From contig CBDCWC010000002.1 in the NCBI GenBank assembly GCA_965223295.1, forward strand, positions 1,152,001 to 1,216,000: 64,000 nt of DNA, given 5' to 3'. A program made the position numbers and the translations under genes. Under the pieces are notes generated by a model. It was not told the origin of the DNA and made no database searches. It saw only the letters and a program-made list of their open reading frames with translations. Positions 18,435 to 55,218 of this stretch are shown one piece after another (positions within the stretch are counted from its first letter, which is position 1; each line of letters starts with the position of its first letter). This stretch comes from Nitrospirales bacterium (GTDB lineage: Bacteria; Nitrospirota; Nitrospiria; Nitrospirales; UBA8639).

Positions 18435-18462
18435 TTATCGGTTAGTATTCAAGAAGAATTAA
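18435..18462 (-). promoter_or_regulatory. Sigma28-like promoter for STAS / HD-GYP / hybrid kinase
   Basis: Minus strand TTAA-N16-ACCGATAA. Confidence 0.6.
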
Positions 18463-18550
18463 GGACAGAAGAGGAAGGATAAGATATGAAAAAGAGGTAA
18501 AATCGTCTGTAACATTCTTCCAACTCCTTACTCCTAATCTCTCACACCTT
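18461..18550. repeat. Heptamer inverted-repeat element (PilZ|STAS)
   Basis: Irregular purine arm, then ACTCCTT ACTCCTA ATCTCTC ACACCTT (18523-18550). Confidence 0.6.
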
Positions 18551-18561
18551 GCGAATTCTTC

Positions 18562-18951
18562 TTATGATTTGGCATGAAGCCCTACATGGGACTCAAACTC
18601 TTCTTCAACCTGATTCGCCTGCGTTCCACTGTTATACAATACTAAGTTTTTCAGATGCTGGATGCTCTCATTGCCAATAATTTCATCAAATTGCACAGCC
18701 AATTTGTGCGTCTCCGTACGTGCGACCACTCCCCTCGCCTCTATGGTAGGACCACCCTGTCCACCGTCTAAATGGACAAAAACTAGACACGGAGTTTGTT
18801 CAGGTAGCGATGTTTCACTATTGAGTAACAAACCGTTCAAGCTCACATTTTCCAATTCCCCTTGAATCACGACATTGCCGCCAACGCGCAACTCGGCATG
18901 AATTGCTACTTTGACTCGCGTAAACTCTCGATGATTTTCAACAGCAGGCAT
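18562..18951 (-). CDS. Stand-alone PilZ-domain c-di-GMP receptor; start probably ATG 18951
   Basis: RxxxR (REFTR) and NxSxxG (NVSLNG) motifs intact. Confidence 0.88.
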   Translation of the reverse strand: MPAVENHREFTRVKVAIHAELRVGGNVVIQGELENVSLNGLLLNSETSLPEQTPCLVFVHLDGGQGGPTIEARGVVARTETHKLAVQFDEIIGNESIQHLKNLVLYNSGTQANQVEEEFESHVGLHAKS

Positions 18952-18974
18952 AAGCCACCTTTCCTGTAAGAAGT

Positions 18975-19088
18975 CGTCAGGAGTGAAAACAAAAAGTGAG
19001 AAGCAAGAGAAAAGCAATTCGTAATTGCAGTTCCAATCTTCTTCTTGTATTTCCCATTTTTACTTCTACCGCCTCCCTTTACCCTCCT
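18975..19088. repeat. Heptamer inverted-repeat element (cheX|PilZ)
   Basis: CGTCAGG AGTGAAA ... AGTGAGA AGCAAGA followed by a pyrimidine-rich arm. Confidence 0.55.
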
Positions 19089-19538
19089 TCATTGTCGTTG
19101 CCAGACAGAAACAAAGAGCGGCTGTTCCTGACAATCAAACACCAGTTCGCTCATCCGTTTCATCCCTGAAATTTTCAAATGGTCGTCCGTCGTGGACTCT
19201 ACACAAGGGATAGAAAGCTGACACGGCTCGGGAAGCAAGGACTTGATATTACCTCCAATAATGTTTGTCAATTCATACATGGCATCGACAGAATCCTGGT
19301 CAGTACCAGCATCCGGTTCAGTTGAAAAGATCACAGCCGCCGCAGCTGCTGCCAGTTCCCGAGACCCATGCAACAACACGGCACCCGTCCAGGCCCCCGA
19401 AATTTCCACCTTCCCCGTCAAATATCCTGCAACTGGCCCCATCGACGCCGGCAACGCACGAGGACGAATGTCCAGCCCTAAAATCGACTGCCACGTGGCT
19501 TCCGTAATCTCCAAAATTTCCTCTTCAAGAAATTGCAT
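19089..19538 (-). CDS. cheX: CheX phosphatase; start probably ATG 19538
   Basis: DAMYELTNIIGGNIK (ExxN motif), LSIP. Confidence 0.9.
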   Translation of the reverse strand: MQFLEEEILEITEATWQSILGLDIRPRALPASMGPVAGYLTGKVEISGAWTGAVLLHGSRELAAAAAAVIFSTEPDAGTDQDSVDAMYELTNIIGGNIKSLLPEPCQLSIPCVESTTDDHLKISGMKRMSELVFDCQEQPLFVSVWQRQ

Positions 19539-19549
19539 TCGGGTTCCTC

Positions 19550-20383: not shown

Positions 20384-20397
20384 CGTATACCTTTCTG

Positions 20398-21503: not shown

Positions 21504-21576
21504 AGTAAAAAATCCGAAGCGAAGAAATGCTAATGAAGGCTTCCTAACATCTCACTTCTTCACTTCCACTTTTTCC
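21504..21576. repeat. Heptamer inverted-repeat element (cheY|cheB, system 2)
   Basis: AGTAAAA AATCCGA AGCGAAG ... ACATCTC ACTTCTT CACTTCC ACTTTTT. Confidence 0.55.
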
Positions 21577-21942: not shown

Positions 21943-22036
21943 AGCTCCTCCTTTTATTCATCAACTGCATTCGTCAGGCGTAAAACATAAATCGCAGAAA
22001 ATCCTCCGTCTCAAGCTTTATGTTTCCCGCAATGTA

Positions 22037-29562: not shown

Positions 29563-30630
29563 TTAAGGATGGGAGAGCATATTTAGATGGGTAAGAATAG
29601 CCGAAGGAATATCATTCAACGGCAGAATCTTATCAACGCCACCAGCTTTGATGGCTTCCTTAGGCATCCCAAATACCACACAGGAGGCTTCGTCCTGCGC
29701 TAGATTAAAGGCACCCGCCTTTTTCATGTCCAACATGCCGGCTGCCCCGTCATTTCCCATACCCGTTAAAATCACTCCAACACTGTTCGCCCCAGCAAAT
29801 TTCGCCACTGATTGAAACATGGGGTCCACAGCCGGCCGATGACGATTGACGGGTGGTTCTTGATTCAAGGTCACGTAATAGCGTGCTCCGCTTCGCCTCA
29901 ACTCCATATGATAGTTTCCGGGAGCCAACAAAGCCTGGCCCGGCAACACACTGTCCCCTTCTTGTGCTTCCTTGACTCCTATTTGACAAAGTTCATTCAA
30001 CCGATCCGCAAAGGTTTTCGTAAATCGTTCTGGCATATGTTGCGTCATGAGAATTGGAGGAGTATTGGGTGGCAACACCTCCAACATCTCACGAAGGGCT
30101 TCCGTTCCGCCAGTTGAAGAGCCAATAGCAATAATCGTATCGGTCGTTTTGATCATGGCAGACTGCTGCGCTAGGGCTTTAATGCGGTCTGCGCAATCTG
30201 CTGGCGGGGTTCGTTTTTTCACTGTCGCTTGAGCGGCGGCTTTTACCTTACTCGTAATTTGTTGAGCGAGATCCTCTAGTCCGTGCTGAATATCCACCGT
30301 TGGCTTGGTCACGAAATCCACGGCACCCGCTTCTAAGGCTTGCATCGTCGTGGCCGCACCTTTATCAGTTAGCGAACTTACCATCACCACAGGCATCGGA
30401 CGAGCTGCCATAAGTTTGTGCAGAAAGGTCAACCCATCCATTTTGGGCATTTCTACATCCAATGTCAGAACATCCGGCGCCAATGTTTTGATCTTGTCGC
30501 GTGCAGCATAGGGATCCGGCGCTGCCCCGATGACTTCAATCTCAGAATCCTGTGAAAGAATTTCAGTCATCACGCCACGAATCAACGCGGAATCATCAAC
30601 AATCAACACTCGAATCTTCCCGTCACTCAT
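29563..30630 (-). CDS. cheB: CheB methylesterase (system 3)
   Basis: REC plus GSSTGGTEAL, TQHMP, LTGMGNDGA. Confidence 0.96.
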   Translation of the reverse strand: MSDGKIRVLIVDDSALIRGVMTEILSQDSEIEVIGAAPDPYAARDKIKTLAPDVLTLDVEMPKMDGLTFLHKLMAARPMPVVMVSSLTDKGAATTMQALEAGAVDFVTKPTVDIQHGLEDLAQQITSKVKAAAQATVKKRTPPADCADRIKALAQQSAMIKTTDTIIAIGSSTGGTEALREMLEVLPPNTPPILMTQHMPERFTKTFADRLNELCQIGVKEAQEGDSVLPGQALLAPGNYHMELRRSGARYYVTLNQEPPVNRHRPAVDPMFQSVAKFAGANSVGVILTGMGNDGAAGMLDMKKAGAFNLAQDEASCVVFGMPKEAIKAGGVDKILPLNDIPSAILTHLNMLSHP

Positions 30631-30645
30631 ATCCCCTCCCTAAAT

Positions 30646-30730
30646 CGTGAAAAGTAAGAAAGGAGAAGTCAGAAGAAAAAAGATCTGAACTCTTTGCTTG
30701 TCTCATACCTCTCACTTCTAACTTTGACCT
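30646..30730. repeat. Heptamer inverted-repeat element (cheD|cheB)
   Basis: CGTGAAA AGTAAGA AAGGAGA AGTCAGA AGAAAAA ... ACCTCTC ACTTCTA ACTTTG. Confidence 0.7.
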
Positions 30731-30736
30731 TATATC

Positions 30737-31342
30737 TTAAAAAAGAGTTACCTCGGACTGCGCAGGAGCCTGTTGCAGCTTTGCTCGGTATTGCCCCTCC
30801 TCCTCCGCAATAGTTTTCGCAACGACCCGATCAAGCTTCTTTAACAACACTTTTCCGGAATCGGTAAAAAAATACACTTTCCGTGGACACACATCCCCCA
30901 CATTAGCTTTCACGAGCGAAAGCCCCTCTTGCTCCAGAAAGGCTAAGGCCCACGCCGCATTTTTCGCTCCAATATCGATGGTTCCATCATAAATTTTCCC
31001 TCCCCCAAACACTTTGGCTTCCAACCTGTCCTTTTTTCCTCCACGCTTGAGAATGTCATTAATCAACATTTCCATCGCAAAACTTCCATAGCGGCCAGAT
31101 TCGGCCCAGTTATCATGGCCATCGGTTTTGGAGGGCGCGGCTAACATGAAATGATTCATACCTCCGACGTTAACCAATGGATCCCGCAAACAAACTGATA
31201 TGCAGGAACCCAATACCGTATACACCACTTTAGGCTCTTCGCTTACAAAATATTCGCCTGGCAAAATCACCGCGACTTCATAGGGAAAGCGGGTATCTTG
31301 AATCCGGCGGATATGCCCAAATTCCATGTTGGTTGCCGACAT
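30737..31342 (-). CDS. cheD: CheD receptor glutamine deamidase
   Basis: TVLGSCISVCL, GGMNHFML, AKVFGGG, IGAKN. Confidence 0.95.
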   Translation of the reverse strand: MSATNMEFGHIRRIQDTRFPYEVAVILPGEYFVSEEPKVVYTVLGSCISVCLRDPLVNVGGMNHFMLAAPSKTDGHDNWAESGRYGSFAMEMLINDILKRGGKKDRLEAKVFGGGKIYDGTIDIGAKNAAWALAFLEQEGLSLVKANVGDVCPRKVYFFTDSGKVLLKKLDRVVAKTIAEEEGQYRAKLQQAPAQSEVTLF

Positions 31343-31352
31343 AAATTTTTAT

Positions 31353-31463
31353 AGTAAGGAGTGAAGAGTAAGGGGTAAGGAGCAAAAGGAAACAGAAGAA
31401 TCGTTCAAGTATCTACTCCTTACTACTCACTCCTAACTCCTGACTACTTACCTCTTACCACTC
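31353..31463. repeat. Heptamer inverted-repeat element (cheR|cheD); clearest copy
   Basis: AGTAAGG AGTGAAG AGTAAGG GGTAAGG AGCAAAA (31353-87) ... ACTCCTT ACTACTC ACTCCTA ACTCCTG ACTACTT ACCTCTT ACCACTC (31415-63). Confidence 0.9.
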
Positions 31464-31468
31464 TTGGG

Positions 31469-32290
31469 TTATTCAAAAGATTTTTGGTAAATCGTCGGTT
31501 TTACATACGAAAACTGATGTTCAATCCATTGCAGACTTTCAGAATGCCCAATGAAGAGATAGCCTCCAGGACGTAAATAGCGATAAAACTTGCTCATCAG
31601 CGTGGCTTGCGTCGGACGATCAAAATAAATCATGACATTACGGCAAAAAATCACATCCAACGGCGTACGGATAGGAAACGCCGGAGCCATAAGATTAATG
31701 CGGCGAAACGCGATCATCTCAGACAAACGCTTACGAACCTTTAACTTCCCAGCTTGTTCGCCTTTGCCGCGCAGGAAATGGCGACGAACAATATCTTGTG
31801 GAAGTTGTAAGACTCGCTCTTCGTCGTAAATGCCTGAGGCCGCTTTGGCTAACACACGCGTAGAAATATCGGAGGCCAACACTTTTACATCCCAGCTTGC
31901 AAGATCGGGAAGTGAGTCAGCTAACGTCATCGCTATGGTATAGGGCTCTTCTCCCGATGATGACGCGGAGGACCAGATCCGAATCGTACGAGTTGCTTGT
32001 AGTTGAGGAAGAACCTGTTCACGAAGAAAATCAAAATGTACCGGCTCACGAAAAAAGTCAGTCTTATTAGTCGAGACCAGATCCACTAAACGGATTAACT
32101 CTTCTTCCCCGCCTTTGCTACTGACGCGATCAAAGTAGGCTTGATACGTGGACAACTCCAATTCTCGTAGTCGTTTCCCCAATCGTGACGTCAACAAACT
32201 TTTTTTGGGTGCATCCAACTTGATACCGACGTGCTCATAAATCAGTGTTTGAAACTGCTGAAATTCTTGGTCAGTTAAAGTCGCACTCAT
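31469..32290 (-). CDS. cheR: CheR methyltransferase (system 3)
   Basis: STNKTDFFREP.HF, SSSGEEPYT, FCRNVMIYF, GHSE. Confidence 0.96.
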   Translation of the reverse strand: MSATLTDQEFQQFQTLIYEHVGIKLDAPKKSLLTSRLGKRLRELELSTYQAYFDRVSSKGGEEELIRLVDLVSTNKTDFFREPVHFDFLREQVLPQLQATRTIRIWSSASSSGEEPYTIAMTLADSLPDLASWDVKVLASDISTRVLAKAASGIYDEERVLQLPQDIVRRHFLRGKGEQAGKLKVRKRLSEMIAFRRINLMAPAFPIRTPLDVIFCRNVMIYFDRPTQATLMSKFYRYLRPGGYLFIGHSESLQWIEHQFSYVKPTIYQKSFE

Positions 32291-32310
32291 AAATTGATCC
32301 TATAAAAGCA

Positions 32311-32404
32311 ATGAAGAGGTACGGCGTAATTAGTAAGGAAGAAGGGGTACGTCCCAGAGGTTTCTTCCCGCTCCTCACTCGTTACGATTCACGTTTCACT
32401 CATC
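32311..32404. repeat. Heptamer inverted-repeat element (DUF420|cheR)
   Basis: ATGAAGA GGTACGG CGTAATT AGTAAGG AAGAAGG ... GCTCCTC ACTCGTT ACGATTC ACGTTTC ACTCATC. Confidence 0.75.
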
Positions 32405-32897
32405 TGGCTGGATACCAGTAAAACAACATGAGATACACAAGATACGCTGTCAGAATTGTCCCACCAAACGTCCATTCCATCACATGTCCTAGCCTGCGAT
32501 GCAGAGACACTCCCGCCACCATAGCCCCTGCCCCAATACCATGCCGAAGACGACGCAACCCAATAACCATATTGGTACCACCAAGACCAATCGTAATAAG
32601 GGCCAGCCCCGTATGCACGACAAGCAAGGGCATATACAACATCCAATATTCTTCTGATGTCCCACCAAAATGATCTCTCCCAAACATCAATTGTTTCGTG
32701 ACATAGGCGACGAGCCAAATACCGACCAAGAGACAGGAAACCGTCATCCACTTTTTGTGAGACGCCACATCGTGACTTTTGGCTGCCCGGACACCCACTA
32801 AAACCATGCCATAGGCCAGGGTCATACCCACCAACACTGCGCCCCATAACAGATCAACAATTCCCATTTGTGCGCCACGGAAGGGGATTTGAACCAT
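32400..32897 (-). CDS. DUF420-like 4-TM membrane protein (start may be 32867)
   Basis: Four hydrophobic helices with HKKWM, HTGLA, HRRLG and a final VYLML. Confidence 0.75.
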   Translation of the reverse strand: MVQIPFRGAQMGIVDLLWGAVLVGMTLAYGMVLVGVRAAKSHDVASHKKWMTVSCLLVGIWLVAYVTKQLMFGRDHFGGTSEEYWMLYMPLLVVHTGLALITIGLGGTNMVIGLRRLRHGIGAGAMVAGVSLHRRLGHVMEWTFGGTILTAYLVYLMLFYWYPAR

Positions 32898-32981
32898 AAA
32901 TCGCTTGATCCGCTATACGTACTTCATACATAGAAGAAGTGAACTGAAACACTGGAATCAGGATTTCTTATACTCTGATAT

Positions 32982-33009
32982 CTATCGGCACAGGGGAGTG
33001 TAGAAATAA
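32982..33009 (-). promoter_or_regulatory. Possible sigma28 promoter for DUF420-cheR-cheD-cheB
   Basis: -10 GCCGATAG is strong; -35 TTAT at N16 is weak; lies after a terminator. Confidence 0.45.
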
Positions 33010-33060
33010 GTCAAATTTTTCAATTTTTAAGGGATTTGACTGATCACATGTAGGAGAAAT

Positions 33061-33099
33061 AAAAAATGGCGTGGACGGCTCTGACACCATCCACGCCAT
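33061..33099 (-). terminator. Intrinsic terminator after the heme-c protein gene
   Basis: ATGGCGTGGA/TCCACGCCAT 10-bp stem followed by a T-tract on the minus strand. Confidence 0.8.
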
Positions 33100-33129
33100 A
33101 ACATAAGGCGGTTGCCTGAGAAGTGAAGG

Positions 33130-33669
33130 TTATTTCATTCGGACCACAATCGCGCCCATGAAATCCCCTTTTTTCCAATCTTTTTTCGTCGTCTTGGGAT
33201 GCTCATTGTGACAAGAAGCGCAGCTATCAACGATCGCAAAGTCTGCGGACATACCAATCGTTTTTCCACCATCTTCACCTGTAATGACCTTTGCTTTTCC
33301 ACTGGCTAATGCAGCTAGCATTTCTTTTTCTTTAGGACTTTTTGCCGCATTTGAAGCATACAATGGGTCCGTTCCAAGAAGACCGATCTCAAAATCCCGA
33401 ACTTCTTTCCCAATTTCTTTGACAAATTGTGCAGGAAGCATGATGCCATGATCATCCTTCACCCAATCTTCATTCCCTTTTAAGCCCCCTTTTTTTGCAT
33501 CGGCAAGTACACCTTTGACAAAGACTGTTCTCGCAGCTTTGACCGCCGCTAACACATACTCGGCAGCTTTGCCCTTCGAAATGTCCGCTGCTTGCCCAGC
33601 AGGCAACATCATGAGTAGCCCCAAAACACATACTCCAAACATCATTGAGATTGTCGCTCCTCGTCTCAT
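33130..33669 (-). CDS. Secreted mono-heme c-type protein, DUF3365/Tll0287-like; start probably ATG 33669
   Basis: Signal peptide ending AGQA; MLPAQFVKE; C-terminal CASCH...GDFMGAI; RBS GGAGGAG. Confidence 0.85.
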   Translation of the reverse strand: MRRGATISMMFGVCVLGLLMMLPAGQAADISKGKAAEYVLAAVKAARTVFVKGVLADAKKGGLKGNEDWVKDDHGIMLPAQFVKEIGKEVRDFEIGLLGTDPLYASNAAKSPKEKEMLAALASGKAKVITGEDGGKTIGMSADFAIVDSCASCHNEHPKTTKKDWKKGDFMGAIVVRMK

Positions 33670-38923: not shown

Positions 38924-38925
38924 CG

Positions 38926-41022: not shown

Positions 41023-41034
41023 GAGGTACCTCAT

Positions 41035-41093
41035 TGAAAGTAAAAAGAGAGAAAGGAGAAGGGAGAAGTAGGGAGAAAGGAGGGAGAAAACCC
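41035..41093. repeat. Purine heptamer arm on one flank of the four-helix-bundle gene
   Basis: AGTAAAA AGAGAGA AAGGAGA AGGGAGA AGTAGGG AGAAAGG AGGGAGA AAACCC. Confidence 0.8.
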
Positions 41094-41109
41094 AGGGCGA
41101 ATAGCTCGA

Positions 41110-41475
41110 TCACTTTTGCCTCTCTTTCTGATGGCGAATAAGCCCACTGATCATCTTGTCAACTTCAACCATATTTTTATCAATGAACTCCCATTTCATT
41201 TCAGGGATGTAGCCCAGCCGTTTAGCTAATTCCAGTTGTGTGTCCAATTCACTCAAGGAACCTTTCGCTACATACAAAAACTGAGTGAATTCGTTTTTGC
41301 TCCGGCGACTGGCTCCTTCTGCTATGTTACTGGGAATACTCACCACTGCCCTTCGAATTTGGCTTGTCAATCCATAGCTTTCAAAAGCCGGAAACTTTTT
41401 TGTGATTTCATACACGTTTAACACCAAATCTATTGCCCCCTGCCATGCATTTAATTTTTTATGAAGTTTCTCCAC
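41110..41475 (-). CDS. Four-helix-bundle protein (23S rRNA intervening-sequence protein / Avd-like family)
   Basis: L.AWQ.A..L...VY.IT..FP..E.YGLTSQIRRA.VSIPSNIAEG..R.S..EF..FL..AKGSLSELDTQL..A..LGY family signature; GTG start. Confidence 0.92.
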   Translation of the reverse strand: MEKLHKKLNAWQGAIDLVLNVYEITKKFPAFESYGLTSQIRRAVVSIPSNIAEGASRRSKNEFTQFLYVAKGSLSELDTQLELAKRLGYIPEMKWEFIDKNMVEVDKMISGLIRHQKERQK

Positions 41476-41481
41476 AAAAAT

Positions 41482-41626
41482 AGCAAGAAGTTAGATGTGA
41501 GAAGAGAGACGCAAGAAGAGGAGATACTCTGACTCTTCTTTTCCTCTAATCTCCCATCTGACAACCTGTACTTCTTCCATCTCAAATCTCACTTTGTGCG
41601 CTTCTCACTTCTTCCTTTTCACTTTT
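41482..41626. repeat. Heptamer hairpin plus an extra pyrimidine arm on the other flank of the four-helix-bundle gene
   Basis: AGCAAGA AGTTAGA TGTGAGA AGAGAGA CGCAAGA ... CTCTTCTT ... TCTCCCATCTGA ... CTTCTC ACTTCTT CCTTTTC ACTTTTT. Confidence 0.8.
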
Positions 41627-41998
41627 TCATCCTGGCAAGACTTTTTTGATGGTGGCCAGCATTTGTTCTGGATTAAATGGTTTCACCACCCATCCCGTCG
41701 CTCCCGCGCTTTGTCCTTCTTTCTTTTTCGCATCTGATGACTCAGTTGTCAGCATGAGGATCGGCGTAAACTTATGCGCCGCCATGCCACGAACGGCTTT
41801 TATGAGGGATATGCCATCCATATTGGGCATATTCAGATCAGTAATTACGAGATTGGGCTTGGCTCCACCATTTAACTTGTCGACGGCTTCTTTTCCGTCG
41901 CCGGCCTCAACGACCTCATACCCAGCTCCGGTGAGTGTGAAATTCACCATTTGCCGCATGGAAACGGAATCATCAACTACTAGTACGGTCTTGCCCAT
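41627..41998 (-). CDS. cheY: CheY (system 3)
   Basis: VLVVDDSVSMRQMV, TDLNMPNMDG, MLTTES, GWVVKPF. Confidence 0.95.
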   Translation of the reverse strand: MGKTVLVVDDSVSMRQMVNFTLTGAGYEVVEAGDGKEAVDKLNGGAKPNLVITDLNMPNMDGISLIKAVRGMAAHKFTPILMLTTESSDAKKKEGQSAGATGWVVKPFNPEQMLATIKKVLPG

Positions 41999-42067
41999 GA
42001 TTATCCCTCTCTGTTGTCGGGTTACTTGGATATCGCCTTGCGCAATTCATCTTTGACATTTCGTTCC

Positions 42068-42176
42068 AGTAAGGAGTCGGGAAAAAGGGACTAGGAGAAA
42101 AACCCTTTGCAGGGTTTCCCTCTTCTCAGTTCCCATTCTTCACTCCTTACGGCTCACTCCTTACTTTTTCCTTCTC
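42068..42176. repeat. Heptamer inverted-repeat element (MCP-like|cheY)
   Basis: AGTAAGG AGTCGGG AAAAAGG GACTAGG, inner hairpin AAACCCT-TTGC-AGGGTTT, then TCTTCTC AGTTCCC ATTCTTC ACTCCTT ACGGCTC ACTCCTT ACTTTTT CCTTCTC. Confidence 0.88.
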
Positions 42177-42183
42177 ATCGCAA

Positions 42184-43326
42184 TCAGAACAAGGTCACAC
42201 TATCGCCTTCTTCGGTATCACCTGTCGTCCCCACCATGATCGCTTCTTCTCCAGCATGCGCCGCTTCAATTGTCAGCCGCTCGGATTCCATTGTATAGCT
42301 ATGCTCAAGGGAGCGAAGTTCTCCAAGCACTTCAGGCAGCGTATCTGTGGTCTCGGAGGCTTCTACCACTGCTTGCAGAGGGGCATAGATACGTTCCAAT
42401 GGCTGATAAACATGCTCCAGCTTTTGTCGCGTAATATCTTGGAACTGCATAGACATCACAATTTGCCCAATATGTTCCCCAAGTTCTTTTGCCCGTCCAG
42501 AGTTTTGCCCCACACTTTCTTTCAGCGCTTCATTTTTTGCTACCATGACTTCGGTCATTTCCATAATTTTCTCTTGTGCTTTCAAGGTTTCCGTCAGATC
42601 TATGCTGGCCAGCACCTCGAGCTCAGACATGGCTGACTCCGTTGTACCTTTCACCGCTGTCGCCAAAGCGCGAATCTGTTCGGCCGCTTGCCCCGACCGA
42701 TTGGCTAACTTGGTGACTTCATCTGCAACAACGGCAAATCCTCGGCCATGTTCTCCTGCCCTTGCCGCTTCAATTGCGGCGTTCAAAGCTAACAATCGTG
42801 TTTGATCGGCGATAAATTCTACCTCCTCAACGACAGTTGATATCCGAGACGTCGTATCAACAGCTTCTTCCATCACGCCTACAGTCGAGACTGTGACCGT
42901 GGAGGTCTGAGTCACCTGATTCACAAACATTTGCATGGTATCTTTCGTTCTATTCAGAATAGCTTCCACGCTCATCTCATCGTCAGACCCACTCCCCTCA
43001 CCCATGCTTAAAATAGTCTCCGTTTCAAACGCAGATTCTCTCGCTTGTTGAGAAATTTTTTGAAACCGCTGAATTAACCCTGCCGAAGCCTGTTCTGTTT
43101 CTTGTATGACCGCTTTAAGTTGACCCACAAAAACGGGAAGCATCGGCGCCAAGCATGCACAAAATTCTTTCCAGTTTTTCTGGAACACGATAGCCTCCTG
43201 TTCCAGTTCCTGTTGAACGGTTGCATCAGCCGCGCTGTCAGGTTGTCGTGCTCGTTGCCCCACGATAAATCCGGCTCCACTCCCTACTATGAAGAATATT
43301 GCCCCTAACAACCAATCAATCACCAC
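42184..43326 (-). CDS. Short MCP-like protein (N-terminal TM, signalling hairpin, QFQDxxRQ, tail SVTLF)
   Basis: [52 protein letters not shown]. Confidence 0.85.
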
Positions 43327-43399
43327 ACGTCACCTCTTCTTCATTAATGCCGCATTACTCTGAAATGAACCTCATTCTCCATTCCATTTGGAATGCGTC

Positions 43400-43690
43400 C
43401 TATATGTTTGGAAGGAACTGTGCAAAGCCAATCTGTTCAAAACGATCTCGTATCTGCGAAGAATATCCTTTCAACGTCAAACGGCCCGACCGAGTGGCGG
43501 CCACGATAAGCTGGACGCAAGAGGAATCCATTCGATCGACTTCAGAAAAATCTAATTCTATCGGCCCTTCTTGTTTGTGAAGAAGATCCAGATCTTCATG
43601 GAATTGTGCTGCTTCAAAAATTGTCAAATCGCCAACTGGTTTTAAGACCGCATTGAAAGAAACTGCTTCGACCTCACTTCCACCGTCCAT
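43400..43690 (-). CDS. STAS-domain protein heading the system 3 operon
   Basis: GDLTIFEAA, LDFSEVDRMDSSCVQLI. Confidence 0.85.
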   Translation of the reverse strand: MDGGSEVEAVSFNAVLKPVGDLTIFEAAQFHEDLDLLHKQEGPIELDFSEVDRMDSSCVQLIVAATRSGRLTLKGYSSQIRDRFEQIGFAQFLPNI

Positions 43691-43784
43691 ATATACTCCT
43701 CATCGCTTTTTGAATGTATATGTTTGTATCTCCACTTTCACAGATGCAGCCATTCAATGCTGACCTAGAATAGGCCACACATTC

Positions 43785-43813
43785 TTCTCGGGAGAGAAAT
43801 ATCTGAACTTTAG
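43785..43813 (-). promoter_or_regulatory. Sigma28-like promoter of the system 3 operon
   Basis: Minus strand CTAAA-N16(GTTC...)-CCCGAGAA. Confidence 0.65.
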
Positions 43814-44024
43814 ACATCTTTCAAAAATTGGGATATTCAGATTTCGAGGTAAACTCAGAGCAACAAGAGATGAGCTTCAAAAGCATCACGGCTACCTACA
43901 GTTGCTGTTTCAACCTCCTTCAAACACTTGAGATTGACACTGCCTCTCCGAGTAGGATAGGCCAAACTGAAAAAGAGAAGAGAAAAGATAGACTTACTGT
44001 TCAAGAAAGACCGGAGCCTACAGC

Positions 44025-44981
44025 TTACACAACCTGAGAAACTTCGGTTACCGCAGATTTGTTTAATTGATCTTTTTCGACCAAATTAACCATACAGATG
44101 ACTTTATTGCCTGAGCCTACGTACTCCAGAAAATCGAAACTTAGCGCTTTTGCTATAGCAATTCCACGCCCATGGCTTTCAAGCATGCGATCCGCTTTAA
44201 TTTCTTCGTACTCGCCCCAATTAAATCCTGCCCCCTGATCGGTGATGGTGACTTGAATCTTCCCTGGATACCGTTCAAACACCACTTCCACAAATTTTTC
44301 AGCATGTTCAGGCAGATCTTGCCGACGTAGAATTTCATCTTCCCAACTATCAGCTTCTTGCAATTGGGTTTTCTCTTCATAGGTAATTCCTAAATTGCCA
44401 TGTTCCAAGCTATTGACCAACAATTCATTAAACCCAAACGCCACTTTTTCAGGATTGGGGCAGGCCTGCGCTAACAAGACCGCCAGATCGTATGTTTCTT
44501 CTAACGTTCGCAAGCGAAATACCCCTTGATAGAAACAACCCATCGTCTTCGCCTGTACGCGAAGAGTCTGAGATAACTCCTTCCAGCGGCGAGCCTGCTC
44601 CACAGCGGCACCGATAATGCGTAAAAGGACGTCGGGTTCGTAGGGTTTGGTCAGATAGAAAAAGACTCCTGCTTCCACCCCTTCACAAATTTCAGCAGGA
44701 GCTGCGGCTGCCGTCTGCATAACGACCGGTATCCATTTATACGCTTCATCGTTCTGAAGATGAGTGACAACCTCCAGACCATTCATACCCGGCATCATTC
44801 GATCCAACACAATAACCTGAAACTCTTGAATACCCTTAGCGAGAAGCTCCAAGGCTTCTCCGCCATCATGTGCAACCGCCACTTCATAGGGTTCATCCTT
44901 GAGACATTCTACGAGGACATCAAGGCTCGCCACATCATCATCTACTAATAAGATCCGTGCAAGTTTTTCTTGATTCATCAT
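44025..44981 (-). CDS. REC fused to an RsbW/SpoIIAB-like HATPase (putative serine kinase/anti-sigma factor)
   Basis: VDDD, LDRMMPGMNG, LTKP; then ELLVNSLEHGNL, TDQGAGF, HGRGI..A; no HisKA. Confidence 0.8.
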   Translation of the reverse strand: MMNQEKLARILLVDDDVASLDVLVECLKDEPYEVAVAHDGGEALELLAKGIQEFQVIVLDRMMPGMNGLEVVTHLQNDEAYKWIPVVMQTAAAAPAEICEGVEAGVFFYLTKPYEPDVLLRIIGAAVEQARRWKELSQTLRVQAKTMGCFYQGVFRLRTLEETYDLAVLLAQACPNPEKVAFGFNELLVNSLEHGNLGITYEEKTQLQEADSWEDEILRRQDLPEHAEKFVEVVFERYPGKIQVTITDQGAGFNWGEYEEIKADRMLESHGRGIAIAKALSFDFLEYVGSGNKVICMVNLVEKDQLNKSAVTEVSQVV

Positions 44982-45009
44982 GCTTCTGGATATTCCTCGA
45001 ACATACTAT

Positions 45010-46227
45010 TTACAATTCCATTCCCACCAGAGCCACATCATCGACAAATGAGCCATCGACTTGCCACGAACGACTCTTATTCACAATACTTTTAAGTCCT
45101 AACCTCATGGTTCGCGAATAGACGCCTTCCAGCGCTTCTTGCAAACGGAGAGTCCCCCAAATTTCGCCTTCAGCATTCTCTACTTCATAGATTCCATCAC
45201 TAAATAAATAGAGCCGGTCACCTTTTGACACCGTGGTGGAACTGGTCTCATAGACTTCATCTGCAGAAAAGCCCACGGGCCACGTTCTACCTCCTAACAC
45301 TTCTGATGGAGCATCTTTTCGTAGTAAAATTGCACCCGGATGGCCGCCGCTGGCAAAACGCAGCACTCCAGTTGAAAGCTGTAAAACACCCATCCAGATC
45401 GTAAAGTATTCTCCTTGTTCAGTCATGGGATTCTCCGCGTTCAGACGCGTCACGATTTGGCCTGGATCATAGTCAGGGAAAGCTTTTGCAATATGATCAC
45501 CTTTAAACCACATGGACAAGGACACAGCCCGCAAGGCTGGACCTGTTCCATGTCCGGACATATCCAAAACCATAATGCCTAAATAGTCATCTCCCCACTT
45601 TGCGACTTGAAATAAATCTCCTCCCAACTGAGAAGAGGGCAAAAATTCCCATGCTAAGCGAATTCCAGGAGCCACCTCTCCAGGAACTGGAAGCAAGGAC
45701 CGCACAAAATCGGAAGCCAATTGAATTTCGGCATCCGTCTCAGCTTGTTTCTGGGAAATAATCCGATAGGATTCATTCAAATCCAAGAGTAGTTTTCGAG
45801 TTCGCAGACCCGAACCAATTCGCGCATGAAGCTCATGATCCGACGCAGATTTAGGGAGGAAATCATCTGCACCACGACTCAAGCCTTCCGCAATTTGCTC
45901 CGGTTGATCCAACGCCGTCATTAAGACAAAATGAATAGAACGAAGTTCATGATCTTTCTTTATGACTTCGCAAAGACCCGGGCCATCCAGGTTGGGCATC
46001 ATCCAATCCGAGAGAACCAGATCGACTGGTTCGCGACGGAGGATCTCAAGAGCTTGCTGCCCATCTTCCGCTTCCAATAAGCGATGATTCAGCTTCGATA
46101 GCCGGCGTTTCGCGACCATTCGTACTATTTTTTCATCATCAACGAGCAAGATCGTATAGGGAGAGAGAGACGAAGATTGTTCATCCTCCACTCCCTCGAT
46201 CACCGCAACATTGTCGGGATTGTCCAT
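45010..46227 (-). CDS. REC-PP2C (SpoIIE/RsbU-type) serine phosphatase
   Basis: SDWMMP; LGGD, DMSGHG, SGGHP, FSDG, DDVAL. Confidence 0.92.
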   Translation of the reverse strand: MDNPDNVAVIEGVEDEQSSSLSPYTILLVDDEKIVRMVAKRRLSKLNHRLLEAEDGQQALEILRREPVDLVLSDWMMPNLDGPGLCEVIKKDHELRSIHFVLMTALDQPEQIAEGLSRGADDFLPKSASDHELHARIGSGLRTRKLLLDLNESYRIISQKQAETDAEIQLASDFVRSLLPVPGEVAPGIRLAWEFLPSSQLGGDLFQVAKWGDDYLGIMVLDMSGHGTGPALRAVSLSMWFKGDHIAKAFPDYDPGQIVTRLNAENPMTEQGEYFTIWMGVLQLSTGVLRFASGGHPGAILLRKDAPSEVLGGRTWPVGFSADEVYETSSTTVSKGDRLYLFSDGIYEVENAEGEIWGTLRLQEALEGVYSRTMRLGLKSIVNKSRSWQVDGSFVDDVALVGMEL

Positions 46228-46278
46228 CGGGCAGACCTCTTTTCACTTATACACTAAACACTAAACCGTATTGATCAT

Positions 46279-46306
46279 TCATCGGTCACCTTTCCTGAGA
46301 ACTCAA
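46279..46306 (-). promoter_or_regulatory. Sigma28-like promoter for REC-PP2C / REC-kinase
   Basis: Minus strand TTGA-N16(GTTC...)-ACCGATGA. Confidence 0.5.
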
Positions 46307-46700
46307 ATGCAATTATCTTACATGTGTCACCATGACCAAGTTGTCGAAAGACAGCATAACCACTATGCAAGGACTTACTTTGGTCATTCTTCATATCCTT
46401 AAAGCCCCTCAGTCTTGTGAGATGACTCACCGTCATCACATATGATTTCCCAACGCAACACACGAACTTGGCAGCCAGTTGCATGCACAGTTCTTACAGC
46501 GCCAAAAATAGACCCAGCTAAAGACACGAATGGACTCCTCTTTCTTCGTCTCAGGAAGGATTTCTGTCCTCTCAAGCCTCTCTCATCAGCTTCCGAAGAG
46601 ATTCTATGAAAAGATAATATTGTGATTCGTCAAAAACACAATTATTAAACAAACGATCCTCCCACATGCTCTCTTCTTCTTTATCATAAAAGGACTGCTC

Positions 46701-47570
46701 ATGGCCTCTCTTCCCACTAATCATGAAAAAACAGTTGAAGTACTGTTGGTGATTTTGATGGAGAAGTTGGGTAAACGCGAATTTAATTTACCCCCGCTCC
46801 CCCAAATTGCCAATCAAGTGCTTGCGCTCACCACAGATCCAGAGGCGAATGCCTCCAAACTGACCGCGGTGATTGAACAAGACCCCATACTCACTGCCAA
46901 AGTCTTTCAAACTTCGAATTCGGTCGTACAAGGCTCCGCTCGCCAAATCGACTCGTTACACCAAGCCATTGCCTGGCTTGGGCTCAATACCGTTGCAGGC
47001 ACGGCGTTTACTCTGTCGGTACAGATTGGGGTGTTCGAGGTTCACGGCTATGTCCACGAGGTGAAGGACTTATGGCGACATATGTTAACAACAGCCTTTT
47101 ACGCCAAGACCATTGCTGCGCTTCTGGGATACAAGCCCGACACGGCATTTCTTAGCGGATTGCTCTTTGCCATAGGTAAGCTGCTGGTCGTTCATGTTGT
47201 GAATCAGTATCAAGAAAATCCAACGTCCTTACTCCCTTGGAGCGCCATTGTGACCCTGATGAGAGAATCCTATGTCGAGGTGGGCAGGCAACTCGCCGAA
47301 GCCTGGGGATTTCCCGATTCCGTCAAGGAAGCCATTATTCTTCATCAAGACCATGCGTATCCTTTGGCCATCTCACCCACCAAAAGTGCTCCTATAACCT
47401 GTCTCGCAAACCATTTTGCCTCATATGCTCTCGATCCGCAGTCTCTTTCCGAAGATGCGATTCGCACGCACTCAGTCGTTCAGGCGCTCAACATACCAGA
47501 TACTGTCATCGAGACATTACTAGACACAAAGTCAACGATTCAGGCCCAGGTGGATGGGATGCTCGTCTAA
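46701..47570 (+). CDS. HDOD-domain protein
   Basis: LPPLP, IEQDP.LTAK, AIAWLG, GLLFAIGK (HD replaced by FA), LAEAWGFP. Confidence 0.88.
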   Translation: MASLPTNHEKTVEVLLVILMEKLGKREFNLPPLPQIANQVLALTTDPEANASKLTAVIEQDPILTAKVFQTSNSVVQGSARQIDSLHQAIAWLGLNTVAGTAFTLSVQIGVFEVHGYVHEVKDLWRHMLTTAFYAKTIAALLGYKPDTAFLSGLLFAIGKLLVVHVVNQYQENPTSLLPWSAIVTLMRESYVEVGRQLAEAWGFPDSVKEAIILHQDHAYPLAISPTKSAPITCLANHFASYALDPQSLSEDAIRTHSVVQALNIPDTVIETLLDTKSTIQAQVDGMLV

Positions 47571-47719
47571 AAAAAGAGAGATGTTCGCTAGCCAGGGTAG
47601 TTCTAGAAAGTCATGAAGCGAAACACGTAAGAGGAGTTCAGAAGACCGAACAAAAGCTGAATCTTTCTTCAGCTCTTTGTTTGTTTCTTGACTCTCCTTA
47701 CTCTACTGTTCCCATTTTG

Positions 47720-48499
47720 TTATCGGGCTAGTCTATTATGCAGGAGAGCTTTGAGCCGGACCATCGATTGGGCATGCAGCTGGCAGATTCGTGATTCGGT
47801 CACATGTAAAATGACGCCAATTTCTTTCATCGTGAGTTCTTCAAAGTAATAGAGCGTCAAGACTAACCGCTGGCGTTCAGGTAATCGTTCAATGGCTTCT
47901 ACTAACGCGCGGCGAGCATCTTCCGACACCAGAGATTCCAGAGGATTAGGCTGATCCCGGTCAGCCAACGCATCTAAGATTGGATGAGAATCTTCATCAT
48001 TACTCCCTAAATCATCTAAACTCAACACGACAGCCCCTTTAGCCTGCAAAAGTGTCTCGTCCACTTCTTGCGCTTCCATGCCTAAGGATTCCGCGAGTTC
48101 AGCTTCCGTTGGTGGGCGACCTTTTCGTTTGGTCCATTCGTTGGCAGCATGTTGAATTTTCCCAATACGTTCGCGCAATGAGCGCGGCACCCAGTCCATG
48201 GCTCGGATTTCGTCCAACATGGCTCCACGAATGCGAAACTCGGCATAGGTGCGGAATTTAATTTCTCGGGAAGGATCAAATTTTGTAAGAGCATCTAACA
48301 GACCCACCATACCTGCACTCATGAGGTCTTCCACATTTAGCCCACTCGAGACTCGTATGGCCAACCGCATCGCCATGTATTTGATGACTGGCAAAAACTC
48401 TTGAATGAGTTTCTCACGTTCAGGTGTCGTCAGTGAAAGCTTTGTCGGAAGGGCCGTCTTAGGTTTTTCAGGCACTTCTGTTACCGCACCACGTTTCAT
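47720..48499 (-). CDS. fliA: Flagellar sigma factor FliA (sigma28)
   Basis: KFRTYAEFRIRGAMLDEIR.MDWVPRS; TESRICQLH. Confidence 0.96.
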   Translation of the reverse strand: MKRGAVTEVPEKPKTALPTKLSLTTPEREKLIQEFLPVIKYMAMRLAIRVSSGLNVEDLMSAGMVGLLDALTKFDPSREIKFRTYAEFRIRGAMLDEIRAMDWVPRSLRERIGKIQHAANEWTKRKGRPPTEAELAESLGMEAQEVDETLLQAKGAVVLSLDDLGSNDEDSHPILDALADRDQPNPLESLVSEDARRALVEAIERLPERQRLVLTLYYFEELTMKEIGVILHVTESRICQLHAQSMVRLKALLHNRLAR

Positions 48500-52867: not shown

Positions 52868-52875
52868 AAGTATCT

Positions 52876-53955
52876 CTAGCTAGCCTGTTCTTGTGGATTT
52901 CGTAGACGATAAACATAGGCCAACACCTCCGCCGCCGCTTGATAGAGCGCCGCAGGAATTTCTTGTCCTACCTTCGTGGCTTTAAATAAACCACGAGCCA
53001 GACTCCGATTTTCTAGTATCGGCACGCTCGAATGACGGGCAATTTGCTTGATCTTCTCGGCCATAAATCCAGCACCTTTGGCCACAACCACAGGCGCATC
53101 CATACTCGCCGTGTCATAGCGAAGAGCGACTGCCACGTGCGTCGGATTGGTAATCACAACATCGGCTTGTGGAACAGCTTGCAACATGCGCTGGCGCGAC
53201 CGTTCCCGCTGCAAGCTCAATCGACGAGAGCGAATTTGCGGATCCCCTTCGACATCTTTCGATTCATCTTTCACTTCCTGCTTCGTCATTTTTAAATCTT
53301 CGGTGTGCTGCCACTTTTGGTAAATGAAATCGATAATGGCTAATATGAGTAACGCTCCGCCGACAGACCATACAATATTTTGTACCAAACCCCAGGTCTG
53401 GGAAATCGACCCGGATATTCCCAAAATGGGAAACTGGACAAGGTATTGGAGACCTTGGGACAGCACAAAGTAGATAATCCCGGCCACCATACTGATCTTG
53501 AGAATGGACTTGAGAAGTTCAGCGATGCCTTTCCAAGAAAACAGCCGTTTCACACCATTCATGGGATTTAATTTCGATGGTTTGGGCTTAATGCCTTCTT
53601 CAACCCATAAAAACCCTGTTTGCATAAGAATCGCCCCTAATGCCAAGACAGCGACAATCAAGACAAAAGGAATAAGAGGCACAAAGGCTTGATTGGTAAT
53701 GTTGGTGAAGAGGATATGGATCGTCCGCTGATCAATCTGTAGCGTCCCTGCCTGCTCAAACCAGTAACGATAATGCCCGGAGAATTCTCGCAGAAATTGA
53801 GGAGCCCAGAGAGAAATGGCGCCAACGCCGCCGAGCAACACAAACAAGGGTGGCAGCTCGCGCGTCATGGGCACTTGCCCTTTTCGGCGCGCCTCGGCTA
53901 ACTTTTTGCTAGTAGGTTGTTCAGATTTTTCTCCCCCGTCTTTGTTCTCAGCCAT
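52876..53955 (-). CDS. flhB: FlhB
   Basis: NPTH autocleavage motif; MTKQEVKDE. Confidence 0.97.
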   Translation of the reverse strand: MAENKDGGEKSEQPTSKKLAEARRKGQVPMTRELPPLFVLLGGVGAISLWAPQFLREFSGHYRYWFEQAGTLQIDQRTIHILFTNITNQAFVPLIPFVLIVAVLALGAILMQTGFLWVEEGIKPKPSKLNPMNGVKRLFSWKGIAELLKSILKISMVAGIIYFVLSQGLQYLVQFPILGISGSISQTWGLVQNIVWSVGGALLILAIIDFIYQKWQHTEDLKMTKQEVKDESKDVEGDPQIRSRRLSLQRERSRQRMLQAVPQADVVITNPTHVAVALRYDTASMDAPVVVAKGAGFMAEKIKQIARHSSVPILENRSLARGLFKATKVGQEIPAALYQAAAEVLAYVYRLRNPQEQAS

Positions 53956-54733
53956 CGCCTAATCCCTGCAAAAGTTCCCAGAGAATAGTTTCCATTTCCA
54001 GCACGGATTGTTGAAACACCAACGCAATGAACGGCAATCCAAGCCCCAAGACGATAAGACCCACCGAAATAGTGATGGGGAAACTGGTCAGTAAAATATT
54101 CATTTGTGGTACAAGGCGTCCCAGAAGCCCCATGGTAATATGCACAAGGAACGTGGCCGCCATCACCGGTAACGCCAGCCGCATCCCAATGTCATAAGTC
54201 CGTTGCATTAATCCAGTGACATCAGGGAGAAGTGGCGCACTCAAATGAGCACCAAACGGAGGAATGAGCTGGAAGCTACTCCCTAACGCTAAGAGCACCA
54301 ATAAGTGTCCGTCCACTTGAAAATATAAAAGAGTGGCCAGCACCGTCATCAGTTGACCAAAGACCGGTGTTTGGACCTGCGTGACCGGATCCAGAACATT
54401 GGCCATCGCAAATCCCACTTGAAATCCGAGAACATTTCCTGCCAGCTCGACCGCCGCCATGACCAACCGCATCGCCAACCCCAGTATCAATCCAACGAGT
54501 AATTCGGCCCCTACGGCCATCACCAAATATCCTGGCTCCAGCCAATTGGGATGAAGGGAAAATGTGACGACCGGGGTGAGAATCACGGAGACCGCTACGG
54601 CTAACCCAACTTTGATGCGCTGCGGGACTGTTCGACCTCCCAACAAAGGCAAGGCGGCCAAAATAGCCCCGGTTCGCACCAAGACCACAAGAAATTGCCA
54701 CACCTGTTGCATTGCGATATCCCATTGCAACAC
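53948..54733 (-). CDS. fliR: FliR
   Basis: Multi-TM protein; G.Q.GF..A...DP; PQMNI; position between fliQ and flhB. Confidence 0.93.
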   Translation of the reverse strand: MLQWDIAMQQVWQFLVVLVRTGAILAALPLLGGRTVPQRIKVGLAVAVSVILTPVVTFSLHPNWLEPGYLVMAVGAELLVGLILGLAMRLVMAAVELAGNVLGFQVGFAMANVLDPVTQVQTPVFGQLMTVLATLLYFQVDGHLLVLLALGSSFQLIPPFGAHLSAPLLPDVTGLMQRTYDIGMRLALPVMAATFLVHITMGLLGRLVPQMNILLTSFPITISVGLIVLGLGLPFIALVFQQSVLEMETILWELLQGLGDG

Positions 54734-54762
54734 CGGTTACATCATTTCGTTCAACGAAAAAT

Positions 54763-54852
54763 CGTCAGGAGCAAGGGACAAGAGACGAGAAGAGATGTAC
54801 CATCTGCTATTCTTTTTACTTTTCACTTTTCACTCCTCGCTTCTTACTGTCT
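54763..54852. repeat. Heptamer inverted-repeat element (fliQ|fliR)
   Basis: CGTCAGG AGCAAGG GACAAGA GACGAGA ... TCTTTTT ACTTTTC ACTTTTC ACTCCTC GCTTCTT ACTGTCT. Confidence 0.82.
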
Positions 54853-55122
54853 TCACTGCGCCATCTGAGGAATTTGACCCCAAACACCGGTCATAAATCC
54901 CACAAGAATTTGTAGCATCCATGGGAACATGACTAACAACACAATGAACATGGTCATAATTTTTGGCAAAAAGGTCAGTGTCATTTCATTAATTTGAGTC
55001 ATGGCTTGAAATATACTGACCATCAAGCCTACGACTAAACTCAGCCCCAACATCGGCCCCGCCACGAATAAAATCGTTTTAATCGCTTCCTGTCCTACAG
55101 CCATCACACCTTCGGGAGTCAT
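54853..55122 (-). CDS. fliQ: FliQ
   Basis: SIFQAMTQINEMTLTFLPKI. Confidence 0.97.
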   Translation of the reverse strand: MTPEGVMAVGQEAIKTILFVAGPMLGLSLVVGLMVSIFQAMTQINEMTLTFLPKIMTMFIVLLVMFPWMLQILVGFMTGVWGQIPQMAQ

Positions 55123-55133
55123 GTCTTTATCCT

Positions 55134-55218
55134 TGTAAAAAGTGAAATGGGAGAAGTAAAAAAGTGACAGGTATTTGCTGTTCTTTCTTTACACTTTTTC
55201 CTTTTCCCTTCCACTCTC
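55134..55218. repeat. Heptamer inverted-repeat element (fliP|fliQ)
   Basis: TGTAAAA AGTGAAA TGGGAGA AGTAAAA followed by a pyrimidine arm. Confidence 0.65.

Follow-up and report, generated by a model that had tools for sequence, protein, structure and literature searches.

Heptamer inverted-repeat hairpins in a Nitrospirales motility cluster as probable gene-less relatives of a four-helix-bundle cassette

INTRODUCTION

Two kinds of described element come closest to the family of intergenic heptamer inverted repeats reported here. One is the intervening sequence (IVS) of 23S rRNA genes, exemplified by the helix-45 IVS of Coxiella burnetii, in which the loop contains an S23p open reading frame (ORF) and a 28-bp stem is cut by RNase III (PMC4990558). 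The other is the heptamer simple-sequence repeat (SSR), known as 186 and 183 GGGAATC arrays (70 and 75 convergent pairs) of Xanthomonas, a GGGGAYT repeat of Nostoc and, by citation, the short tandemly repeated repetitive (STRR) sequences of Calothrix (PMC4692102), and as TAACTGA direct repeats in marine Beggiatoaceae, cyanobacteria and Bacteroidetes (PMC4679880). The present elements punctuate a chemotaxis and flagellar cluster in a 64,000-nucleotide stretch (i.e. the window, G000:C2:1152001-1216000) of the genome of an uncultured Nitrospirales bacterium (3.78 Mb, 3 contigs, 47% G+C, rated 100% complete). Genes of the window lie nearly all on the - strand and comprise motAB, several cheA/W/B/R/D/X/Y/Z genes, genes of methyl-accepting chemotaxis proteins (MCPs), fliL-M-N-O-P-Q-R, flhB-A-F, fleN and fliA. 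An earlier note on this DNA had described a family of gaps with purine-rich heptamers followed by their reverse complements. These elements are here judged, with a fair degree of confidence, to be gene-less members of an IVS-type cassette family that form RNA stems in operon transcripts. The complete member would be the cassette at 41035-41626, which encloses a four-helix-bundle gene and has the layout of ORF-bearing 23S rRNA IVSs. Throughout, G000 denotes the genome of the window, other G numbers denote genomes of the same genus and L numbers denote loci.

Palindromic repeats in transcribed operon spacers are also represented by the repetitive extragenic palindromic (REP) sequences and bacterial interspersed mosaic elements (BIME) of enterobacteria and by the Rickettsia palindromic elements, the last of which also occur in frame inside genes. 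The Nitrospirales family resembles the Rickettsia elements in having four in-frame copies, here in receiver domains, and differs from REP/BIME in having no conserved core, no link to a Y1 transposase and arms made of a reiterated unit. Likeness to the ORF-bearing 23S IVSs of Coxiella burnetii and Leptospira, as outlined in PMC4990558, extends to a PF05635 gene in the loop, terminal inverted repeats as a long stem, a position inside a host transcript without an own promoter and the existence of ORF-less versions. The copy at 41035-41626 combines a gene in the loop with stem-forming repeats, and 13 gene-less hairpins were classed as ORF-less relatives. Unlike the rRNA elements, the hosts here are operon mRNA spacers and a 23S-5S spacer rather than helices 9, 25 or 45, the arms are built from tandem heptamers whose number varies, and over a dozen gene-less copies cluster around one gene-bearing copy.

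Xanthomonas SSRs, in the account given by PMC4692102, share several traits with the present family: tandem 7-nt units (2 to >20 per array there, usually ~4), many arrays paired head to head on opposite strands, an intergenic share of 89-93% with positions close behind the upstream ORF and mostly between co-directional or convergent genes, and lengths that are not conserved between related species. In contrast, the unit described here (NGTRAGG) has no G-quadruplex (G4) potential, and the text available from PMC4692102 makes no connection with four-helix-bundle proteins. TAACTGA repeats are likewise intergenic heptamer arrays a few nt from start codons, for which a post-transcriptional role was proposed, but are nearly all direct (169 sets versus one inverted), have another unit and form no hairpin, and the portion of PMC4679880 drawn on here does not tie them to a four-helix-bundle gene either. 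The enclosed protein is homologous to Avd, the four-helix-bundle pentamer of diversity-generating retroelements (NF033474, 35.7 bits, below the cut-off of 80), a relation of PF05635 noted in PMC10053308; unlike Avd, it is accompanied by no reverse transcriptase in the genome and by no template or variable repeats. No publication that connects heptamer repeats with four-helix-bundle or IVS proteins was found, and none on such repeats in Nitrospira, in searches that left most subscription journals uncovered, making an earlier description possible. The statement in the earlier note that no mechanistic description was known is fair, although inverted heptamer pairs themselves have been published for Xanthomonas (PMC4692102). 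Inverted heptamer pairs and IVS cassettes are already known kinds, of which the elements form a variant; of broader interest is the link from gene to hairpin.

RESULTS

Period and order of the heptamer arrays

In-phase arm units were counted with a generic NGTNAGG profile, the purine arm being read 5' and the pyrimidine arm consisting of reverse-complement units. All 12 main sites of the window contained a purine arm of 3-7 heptamers followed by a pyrimidine arm of 3-9 units across spacers of 14-63 nt, as compared to at most 1 and 3 units per arm in the control gaps of the window (n=9). The weakest main sites were those near 18975 (3/3 units) and 21504 (3/4 units). With at least three in-phase units per arm at every one of the 12 gaps, the common layout reported earlier was reproduced. 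The unit consensus was NGTRAGG, which contains GG at most and hence no G-tract.

Periodicity was assessed on whole gaps, a test chosen to avoid circularity as it is independent of arm delimitation. Across 13 whole named gaps (1633 nt), identity reached 0.434 at lag 7 (z 15.0) and 0.385 at lag 14 (z 11.0) with 0.29-0.32 at the remaining lags, while 15 further gaps in the window (2550 nt) gave a flat 0.26-0.27 (z <1.5). Tandem Repeats Finder, run separately, reported period-7 arrays at six of the sites. A lag spectrum over all intergenic DNA of the genome showed no visible lag-7 peak, the elements being too small a share. Matches to (AGTAAGG)4 at >=20/28 in sliding windows of 28 nt numbered 163 and 240 per strand genome-wide versus 5 in a locally shuffled genome.

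Arm order was strictly polar. At a threshold of >=15/21 to (AGTAAGG)n in 21-nt sliding windows, the genome contained 20 pairs in purine-then-pyrimidine (RY) order and none in the other three orders, as against 0 RY, 1 YR, 4 YY and 3 RR pairs in two shuffles together, which upholds the claim that the purine arm is always 5'. A weighted profile gave 39 RY, 8 YR, 11 YY and 2 RR pairs genome-wide (2, 3, 9 and 13, respectively, in two shuffles). With a crude detector for runs of purines or pyrimidines, no asymmetry of order was apparent (126 versus 120 pairs), and periodic profiles were used instead. In mRNA sense, purine arms began 0-10 nt past the upstream stop codon and pyrimidine arms stopped shortly ahead of the downstream start codon. 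Elements occupied presumably transcribed spacers, lying after stops, before starts and between convergent genes and only rarely between divergent ones: 96 purine-first pairs detected at a looser threshold fell between co-directional (42), convergent (21) and divergent (5) genes or inside crude ORF calls (28).

A gene-bearing cassette with the same arms

The sole PF05635 gene of the genome, and of the window, is located at 41110-41475 (- strand) between cheY and cheA and matches PF05635 (134.8 bits), the TIGR02436 'four helix bundle protein' family (126.8 bits) and the pentameric PDB entry 2gsc (E 6e-26). Its true start is probably ~14 codons inside the ORF. The surrounding cassette (41035-41626, - strand) opens on the mRNA with a purine arm directly behind the cheY stop and closes with a pyrimidine arm of seven units that ends at the cheA ATG. 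Its downstream arm occupies 41035-41109, pyrimidine-rich on the mRNA; its upstream side (41476-41626) holds the outer mRNA purine arm (41587-41621 on the + strand) and a complete inner hairpin at ~41482-41559. An ORF of 136 codons on the + strand (41646-42056), antisense to cheY and without a Pfam match, is probably not a gene.

Synteny of the four-helix-bundle gene extends to at least 16 members of the genus, in some of which the gene carries stop codons, and the unit variant of the arms differs by species. A purine arm upstream and a pyrimidine arm downstream were present in 18 of 18 genus loci inspected, including a copy at another locus (L048). A cross-phylum search with one genome per species yielded 80 loci, 77 of them usable, from Nitrospirota, Desulfobacterota, Acidobacteriota, Binatia, Methylomirabilota, Dadabacteria, Fermentibacteria, Aminicenantia and others. 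Purine arms were found <=150 nt upstream of the gene at 71/77 loci, pyrimidine arms downstream at 59/77, both at 54/77 and the reverse layout at 0/77, whereas control flanks 350-650 nt off gave 3, 10, 2 and 1 of 77, respectively. Arms across these loci most commonly had 4 units (medians 5 and 4), a number reached by 8/500 random segments. The gene had the same orientation as both neighbours at 37/73 loci and was opposed to both at none. Final purine units lay 1-10 nt before its ATG and serve as the ribosome-binding site of the enclosed gene; the purine-first polarity would be explained most simply by this supply of a Shine-Dalgarno (SD) sequence. Together with the dependence of arrays on the gene described below, the arms of like kind in at least 16 genus members and in 54/77 relatives make the earlier suggestion of empty versions of the four-helix-bundle copy the best-supported of the readings offered at the time.

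Array numbers and gene state within the genus

Orthologous junctions were compared across the genus, and the presence or absence of elements was found to vary between species. Elements at fliP/fliQ and fliQ/fliR occurred in most of 23 same-genus genomes sampled, with unit numbers and sequences that vary by species; some neighbours can be aligned, which argues for descent at orthologous junctions with fast turnover rather than for repeated insertion. Orthologous junctions ranged from 8 nt to 100-200 nt. Eight junctions that carry elements in G000, G016 and G012 were short and array-free in the gene-less G004 and G014, where cheR/cheD measured 8 nt in both, cheD/cheB 7 nt in one and the fliP/fliQ/fliR gaps 47-68 nt, in agreement with the earlier view that elements split normally tight gene pairs. 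Elements at fliN/fliO and fliL/fliM were present in G016 and G012 and absent from G000. With respect to the hallmarks of MITEs (miniature inverted-repeat transposable elements), empty orthologous sites exist (e.g. cheR/cheD in G004 and G014), element boundaries are too imprecise for target duplications, and the sole gene-bearing partner encodes no known transposase. At the fliA/RR-SpoIIE junction of G012 (L177-L179), a pyrimidine array scored 34 consecutive units, far above any in G000.

Contigs of related strains from four runs differed by gains and losses within the arms: 7 nt were missing at 33857 and 8 nt at 33768, 31 nt were skipped at 38875-38907 with 7 nt of common sequence at the joint, and one strain had an extra CTTCTAC (+7 nt) at 41607. 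Because these changes of -7, -8 and +7 nt and the 31-nt skip with 7-nt shared ends fall inside the arms, the arrays appear to change by 7-base slippage.

Array numbers followed the state of the four-helix-bundle gene. Pattern counts ranged from 1 to 280 over 50 genomes of the genus (3-79 for a control pattern read backwards), with medians of 81 for genomes with an intact gene (n=13), 26.5 for those with a decayed gene (n=6) and 13 for genomes >=90% complete in which none was found (n=9). Mann-Whitney tests of gene state against array count gave p values of 9e-5 and 0.003 on related genomes that are not independent. Sister genomes in the FliPQR tree repeat the pattern: G012 has an intact gene and 272 matches versus 22 in G024, from which the cassette was cleanly deleted, and G002 has an intact gene and 198 matches versus 21 in G007 and 10 in G008. 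At the cheY/cheA junction itself, the clean deletion in G024 left ~3 pyrimidine units, G017 retains remnants, G011 has ~600 nt without an intact gene, and G004 and G014 bear no trace.

Folding of the elements

Every spacer was predicted to fold into a long imperfect purine:pyrimidine hairpin, with z-scores from +0.6 to -5.3 against dinucleotide shuffles, a weak control for folding as such shuffles mix both arms. The sense strand was more stable than the antisense strand in 29/38 spacers (12 from the window and 26 orthologous ones, the orthologues not being independent), and G-U pairs numbered 219 in sense versus 149 in antisense folds of these 38 spacers (G+U content 0.507). This asymmetry in stability and G-U pairs favours a structure at the RNA level over one at the DNA level and lends support to the RNA-structural element proposed in the earlier note. 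Duplexes predicted with RNAduplex between cassette flanks of the 77 loci showed little discrimination, at -102 kcal/mol for cognate and -96 kcal/mol for non-cognate flanks, with the cognate partner better in 54/77.

Distribution in the genome

Well-formed elements outside the window (n=26) had diverse neighbours, including glnA/glnE, trpE/trpG, murC/murB, Usp, type II secretion genes (T2SS E/F) and two-component systems. The window is nevertheless the densest place, with 9/39 pairs <=25 kb from position 41300 versus 0.52 expected. A flagella-specific or motility regulon was ruled out by the diversity of neighbour genes elsewhere. One heptamer hairpin lies in the 105-nt 23S-5S spacer (G000:C3:1354112-1354179; L059:4533-4600); the 23S gene itself spans 3010 nt versus 2925 model positions and is without a large insertion or heptamer arms inside. 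No part of the window matched an Rfam family at E values up to 1.

A second, unrelated repeat family of ~200 nt has the ends TGTTGAAAAA...TTTTTGAACA and a GC-rich core; between the genes of G000, its 10-mers are found some 100-170 times. Elsewhere in the genus, copies occupy the same fli junctions (fliP/fliQ in L013; fliQ/fliR gaps in L016, L021, L030 and L031), as they do even in another family of the order.

Individual elements of the window

Gene-less hairpins are listed on the - strand with counts given as purine/pyrimidine units. The pilZ/STAS junction holds one at 18450-18553, with the purine arm at 18450-18491 (6 units, + strand) and the pyrimidine arm at 18519-18553 (5 units); that of the cheX/pilZ junction (18961-19088) is weak, with scored units at 18988-19008 and 19038-19058. 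A response regulator/cheB junction contains the element at 21504-21570 (sense fold z -4.5), and an extra hairpin absent from the earlier list was found between an MCP gene and a response regulator gene at 21972-22029 (4/4 units; 7/5 in the relative G016). Chemotaxis genes are further separated at cheD/cheB (30646-30723; 5/3 units, + strand), at cheR/cheD by the best-formed gene-less hairpin (31353-31459; 5/6 units, sense fold -46.1 kcal/mol, z -5.3), at DUF420/cheR (32318-32393; 4/4 units), between an MCP and a Tll0287-like gene (33780-33873; 5/5 units), at cheA/cheW (38801-38923) and at an MCP/cheY junction (42068-42179; 5/9 units), the last with a small GC-rich hairpin and a T run at its centre. 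Flagellar elements are located at fliQ/fliR (54763-54848; 4/5 units, with an element at this junction in most of the genus) and fliP/fliQ (55134-55221; 4/5 units, sense fold z -4.8).

Three weaker traces had been listed earlier. The first, near 926, is a lone purine arm upstream of motB (915-949, - strand; 3 units, full site count 3/1). The second lies between the convergent HDOD and fliA genes (47612-47707) and is indeed weak (3/3 units), with a terminator-like hairpin at 47655-47674. The third, near 57970 in the fliL/fliM spacer (57935-58013, - strand), was not supported in G000 (1/2 units) but is present at the same junction in G016 (5/4) and G012 (6/6); the G000 spacer is probably a worn remnant.

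No SD sequence was seen between the pyrimidine arm and the start for cheD (31342), cheA (41034) or the annotated four-helix-bundle ORF (41475), all on the - strand. SD-like purine units lie unpaired at the 5' foot of the hairpin at these three starts, and folding could bring them near the start codon. In the MCP/cheY gap of G012 and the fliP/fliQ gap of L007, elements contain or adjoin copies of a short hairpin rich in GC (GCCCCGCCC...GGGCGGGG, followed by a T-rich tail); these may be a further small repeat or terminators.

DISCUSSION

The preferred explanation is that the hairpins are gene-less relatives of the four-helix-bundle cassette and act at the RNA level. Elements would be co-transcribed with the che and fla operons, and the sense RNA would fold into long imperfect purine:pyrimidine stems. 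By analogy with rRNA IVSs, such stems would most likely be subject to double-strand-specific processing by RNase III, which is encoded in the genome, and long operon transcripts would be cut into segments; failing this, the stems could stabilise or segment the transcript. As the array load depends on the gene, an action of the pentameric protein in trans is suggested. The protein may promote the birth and expansion of arrays, or it may make stems tolerable such that arrays decay or are purged after loss of the gene; both forms fit equally well. A more specific proposal, put forward only tentatively and with less than even confidence, is that the four-helix-bundle pentamer recognises the unit on single-stranded nucleic acid at a ratio near one unit per subunit (4-6 units being the commonest arm length) and makes arrays arise, expand and become homogeneous with neither a transposase nor a reverse transcriptase; cassette and gene-less hairpins would then form a new kind of protein-dependent expanding element.

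Several observations weigh against this explanation. Cognate arms pair at -32.1 kcal/mol and arms from other elements or genomes at -27.7 and -29.2 kcal/mol, and RNAalifold on eight orthologous fliQ/fliR spacers found 7 pairs only and no compensatory changes, for which column-wise covariation is an unsuitable test as the repeat register shifts. Cognate pairing being barely better and compensatory change absent, the complementarity of the arms, while present as the earlier note had it, is a property of the unit family and not of the individual element. Several elements fold no better than dinucleotide shuffles (z up to +0.6). Four copies are in frame within receiver domains of hybrid histidine kinases and receiver proteins (G000:C3:1574576-1574689, 1580678-1580783, 1584180-1584294 and 1843332-1843459), where they lie in the alpha3-beta4 loop between MPEMDGYEATRxIR and IPIIAMTA and are translated as 36-40 extra residues; cleavage of these copies would destroy the mRNA. 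Receiver orthologues in relatives have 24-36 residues at the insert, with C-type heptamers in G015, well-formed ones in G012 and degenerate ones in G004, a genome without the cassette. The correlation within the genus rests on related genomes with about three independent contrasts. One contrast is opposite in direction: G006, whose gene has one stop codon, retains 162 matches versus 178 in its sister G001, and some incomplete genomes without a detected gene are array-rich (G046, 154; G049, 104; G010, 93). Unit types of cassette arms and gene-less elements were not significantly correlated (Spearman 0.40, p 0.23, n=11); anecdotally, the sisters G015 (C-type) and G021 (A-type) differ in unit at equal flank G+C. 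No RVT_1 reverse transcriptase was found in the genome, which makes a route like that of Avd unlikely. Caution is called for by the in-frame copies, by the weakness of the covariation and by G006.

The hairpins could instead be plain, slippage-born SSRs of the STRR or long heptanucleotide type, neutral and unlinked to the protein, with the gene having landed in or been captured by one of them. Slippage accounts for the 7-nt indels between strains, for the speed at which units change in number and sequence at orthologous junctions and for a complementarity that is generic and without compensatory changes. Heptamers are moreover reported to be the commonest class of long SSR in bacteria (Mrazek 2007 as cited in PMC4679880), and the Xanthomonas inverted heptamer pairs are presented without an assigned function in the available text of PMC4692102. 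Slippage alone does not, however, explain the strict purine-first order (20 versus 0), the flush placement against stop and start codons, the G-U bias toward the sense strand or the graded fall of array counts with decay and loss of the gene. Nor does it explain why the same unit family flanks the gene in 54/77 loci from many phyla with 0 reversed, and this neutral origin is regarded as unlikely.

A second alternative is that purine arms are binding arrays for a translational regulator of motility genes (e.g. CsrA with its AAGGA motifs, or a ring protein of the TRAP or HutP type) with which the pyrimidine arm competes. The AGTAAGG unit gives AAGGAG every 7 nt, the densest cluster of elements is the che/fla region, some downstream genes are without an SD sequence of their own, and csrA (G000:C2:1139902-1140057) is located 12 kb ahead of the window, where it borders the motility region. 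Repeats of NAG spaced 7 nt apart also resemble the HutP site. Against such a regulator, the neighbours of the 26 well-formed elements beyond the window are unrelated genes, sister species have the unit CGTGAGG without GGA, a search for HutP found no gene although the genome is rated 100% complete, and copies exist in the 23S-5S spacer and inside coding sequence; this possibility is accorded little weight.

Equally poor are the prospects of the view that the elements divide the long che/fla operons by terminating or attenuating transcription, in both directions where they lie between convergent genes. The location of 21/96 pairs between convergent genes, the U-rich pyrimidine arms, the many loops ending in a T run and the GC-rich central hairpin with T run of the element at 42068 would all suit termination. 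However, a consensus scan of 30000-48000 returned 19 sites versus 16.3 +- 3.7 expected and flagged none of the main-site elements, a flagged hairpin (47655-47674) being held only by the weak trace near 47620. The one strong canonical terminator in this region (33066-33099, - strand, 14-bp stem with T run) is not a heptamer element and sits in the 232-nt gap after the Tll0287-like gene. The stems of the elements are long, A-U/G-U-rich and mismatched, and in-frame copies occur within genes. Termination in fliP/fliQ/fliR or before cheA would, in addition, abolish essential downstream genes, whose expression would be lost because these gaps contain no promoter-like site.

Mobilisation of REP- or MITE-like elements by a Y1 transposase (i.e. 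a REP-associated tyrosine transposase or IS200-type enzyme) is very improbable, for although the distribution in transcribed extragenic DNA is REP-like, junction occupancy varies between species and the genome has five PF01797 matches, only 1/10 flanks of the five Y1 genes scored >=13 for heptamer arms, the arms consist of a 7-nt unit in varying number and have no conserved unique core, and the ~200-nt repeat family is the likelier partner of these transposases. With no match in Rfam, a null terminator scan and Y1 flanks without arms, the earlier judgement that the elements are not REP, CRISPR or classical terminators is sustained.

Returning to the heptamer hairpins, genome annotation should take neither these spacers nor the in-frame receiver copies for terminators, small RNAs or genuine protein linkers. 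Processing of the hairpins, if it occurs, would show how long motility operons can be cut into separately tuned segments. The link between gene and hairpin would tie the TIGR02436 '23S rRNA intervening-sequence' proteins, an orphan family, to abundant intergenic heptamer repeats, and a role of the protein as a trans factor, if true, would account both for these orphan IVS proteins and for the bacterial excess of heptamer repeats in intergenic DNA. The genus provides a natural experiment, in which a cassette in a conserved place has been kept, broken or deleted in sister species and the hairpin load follows, and which makes the trans role of the protein directly testable.

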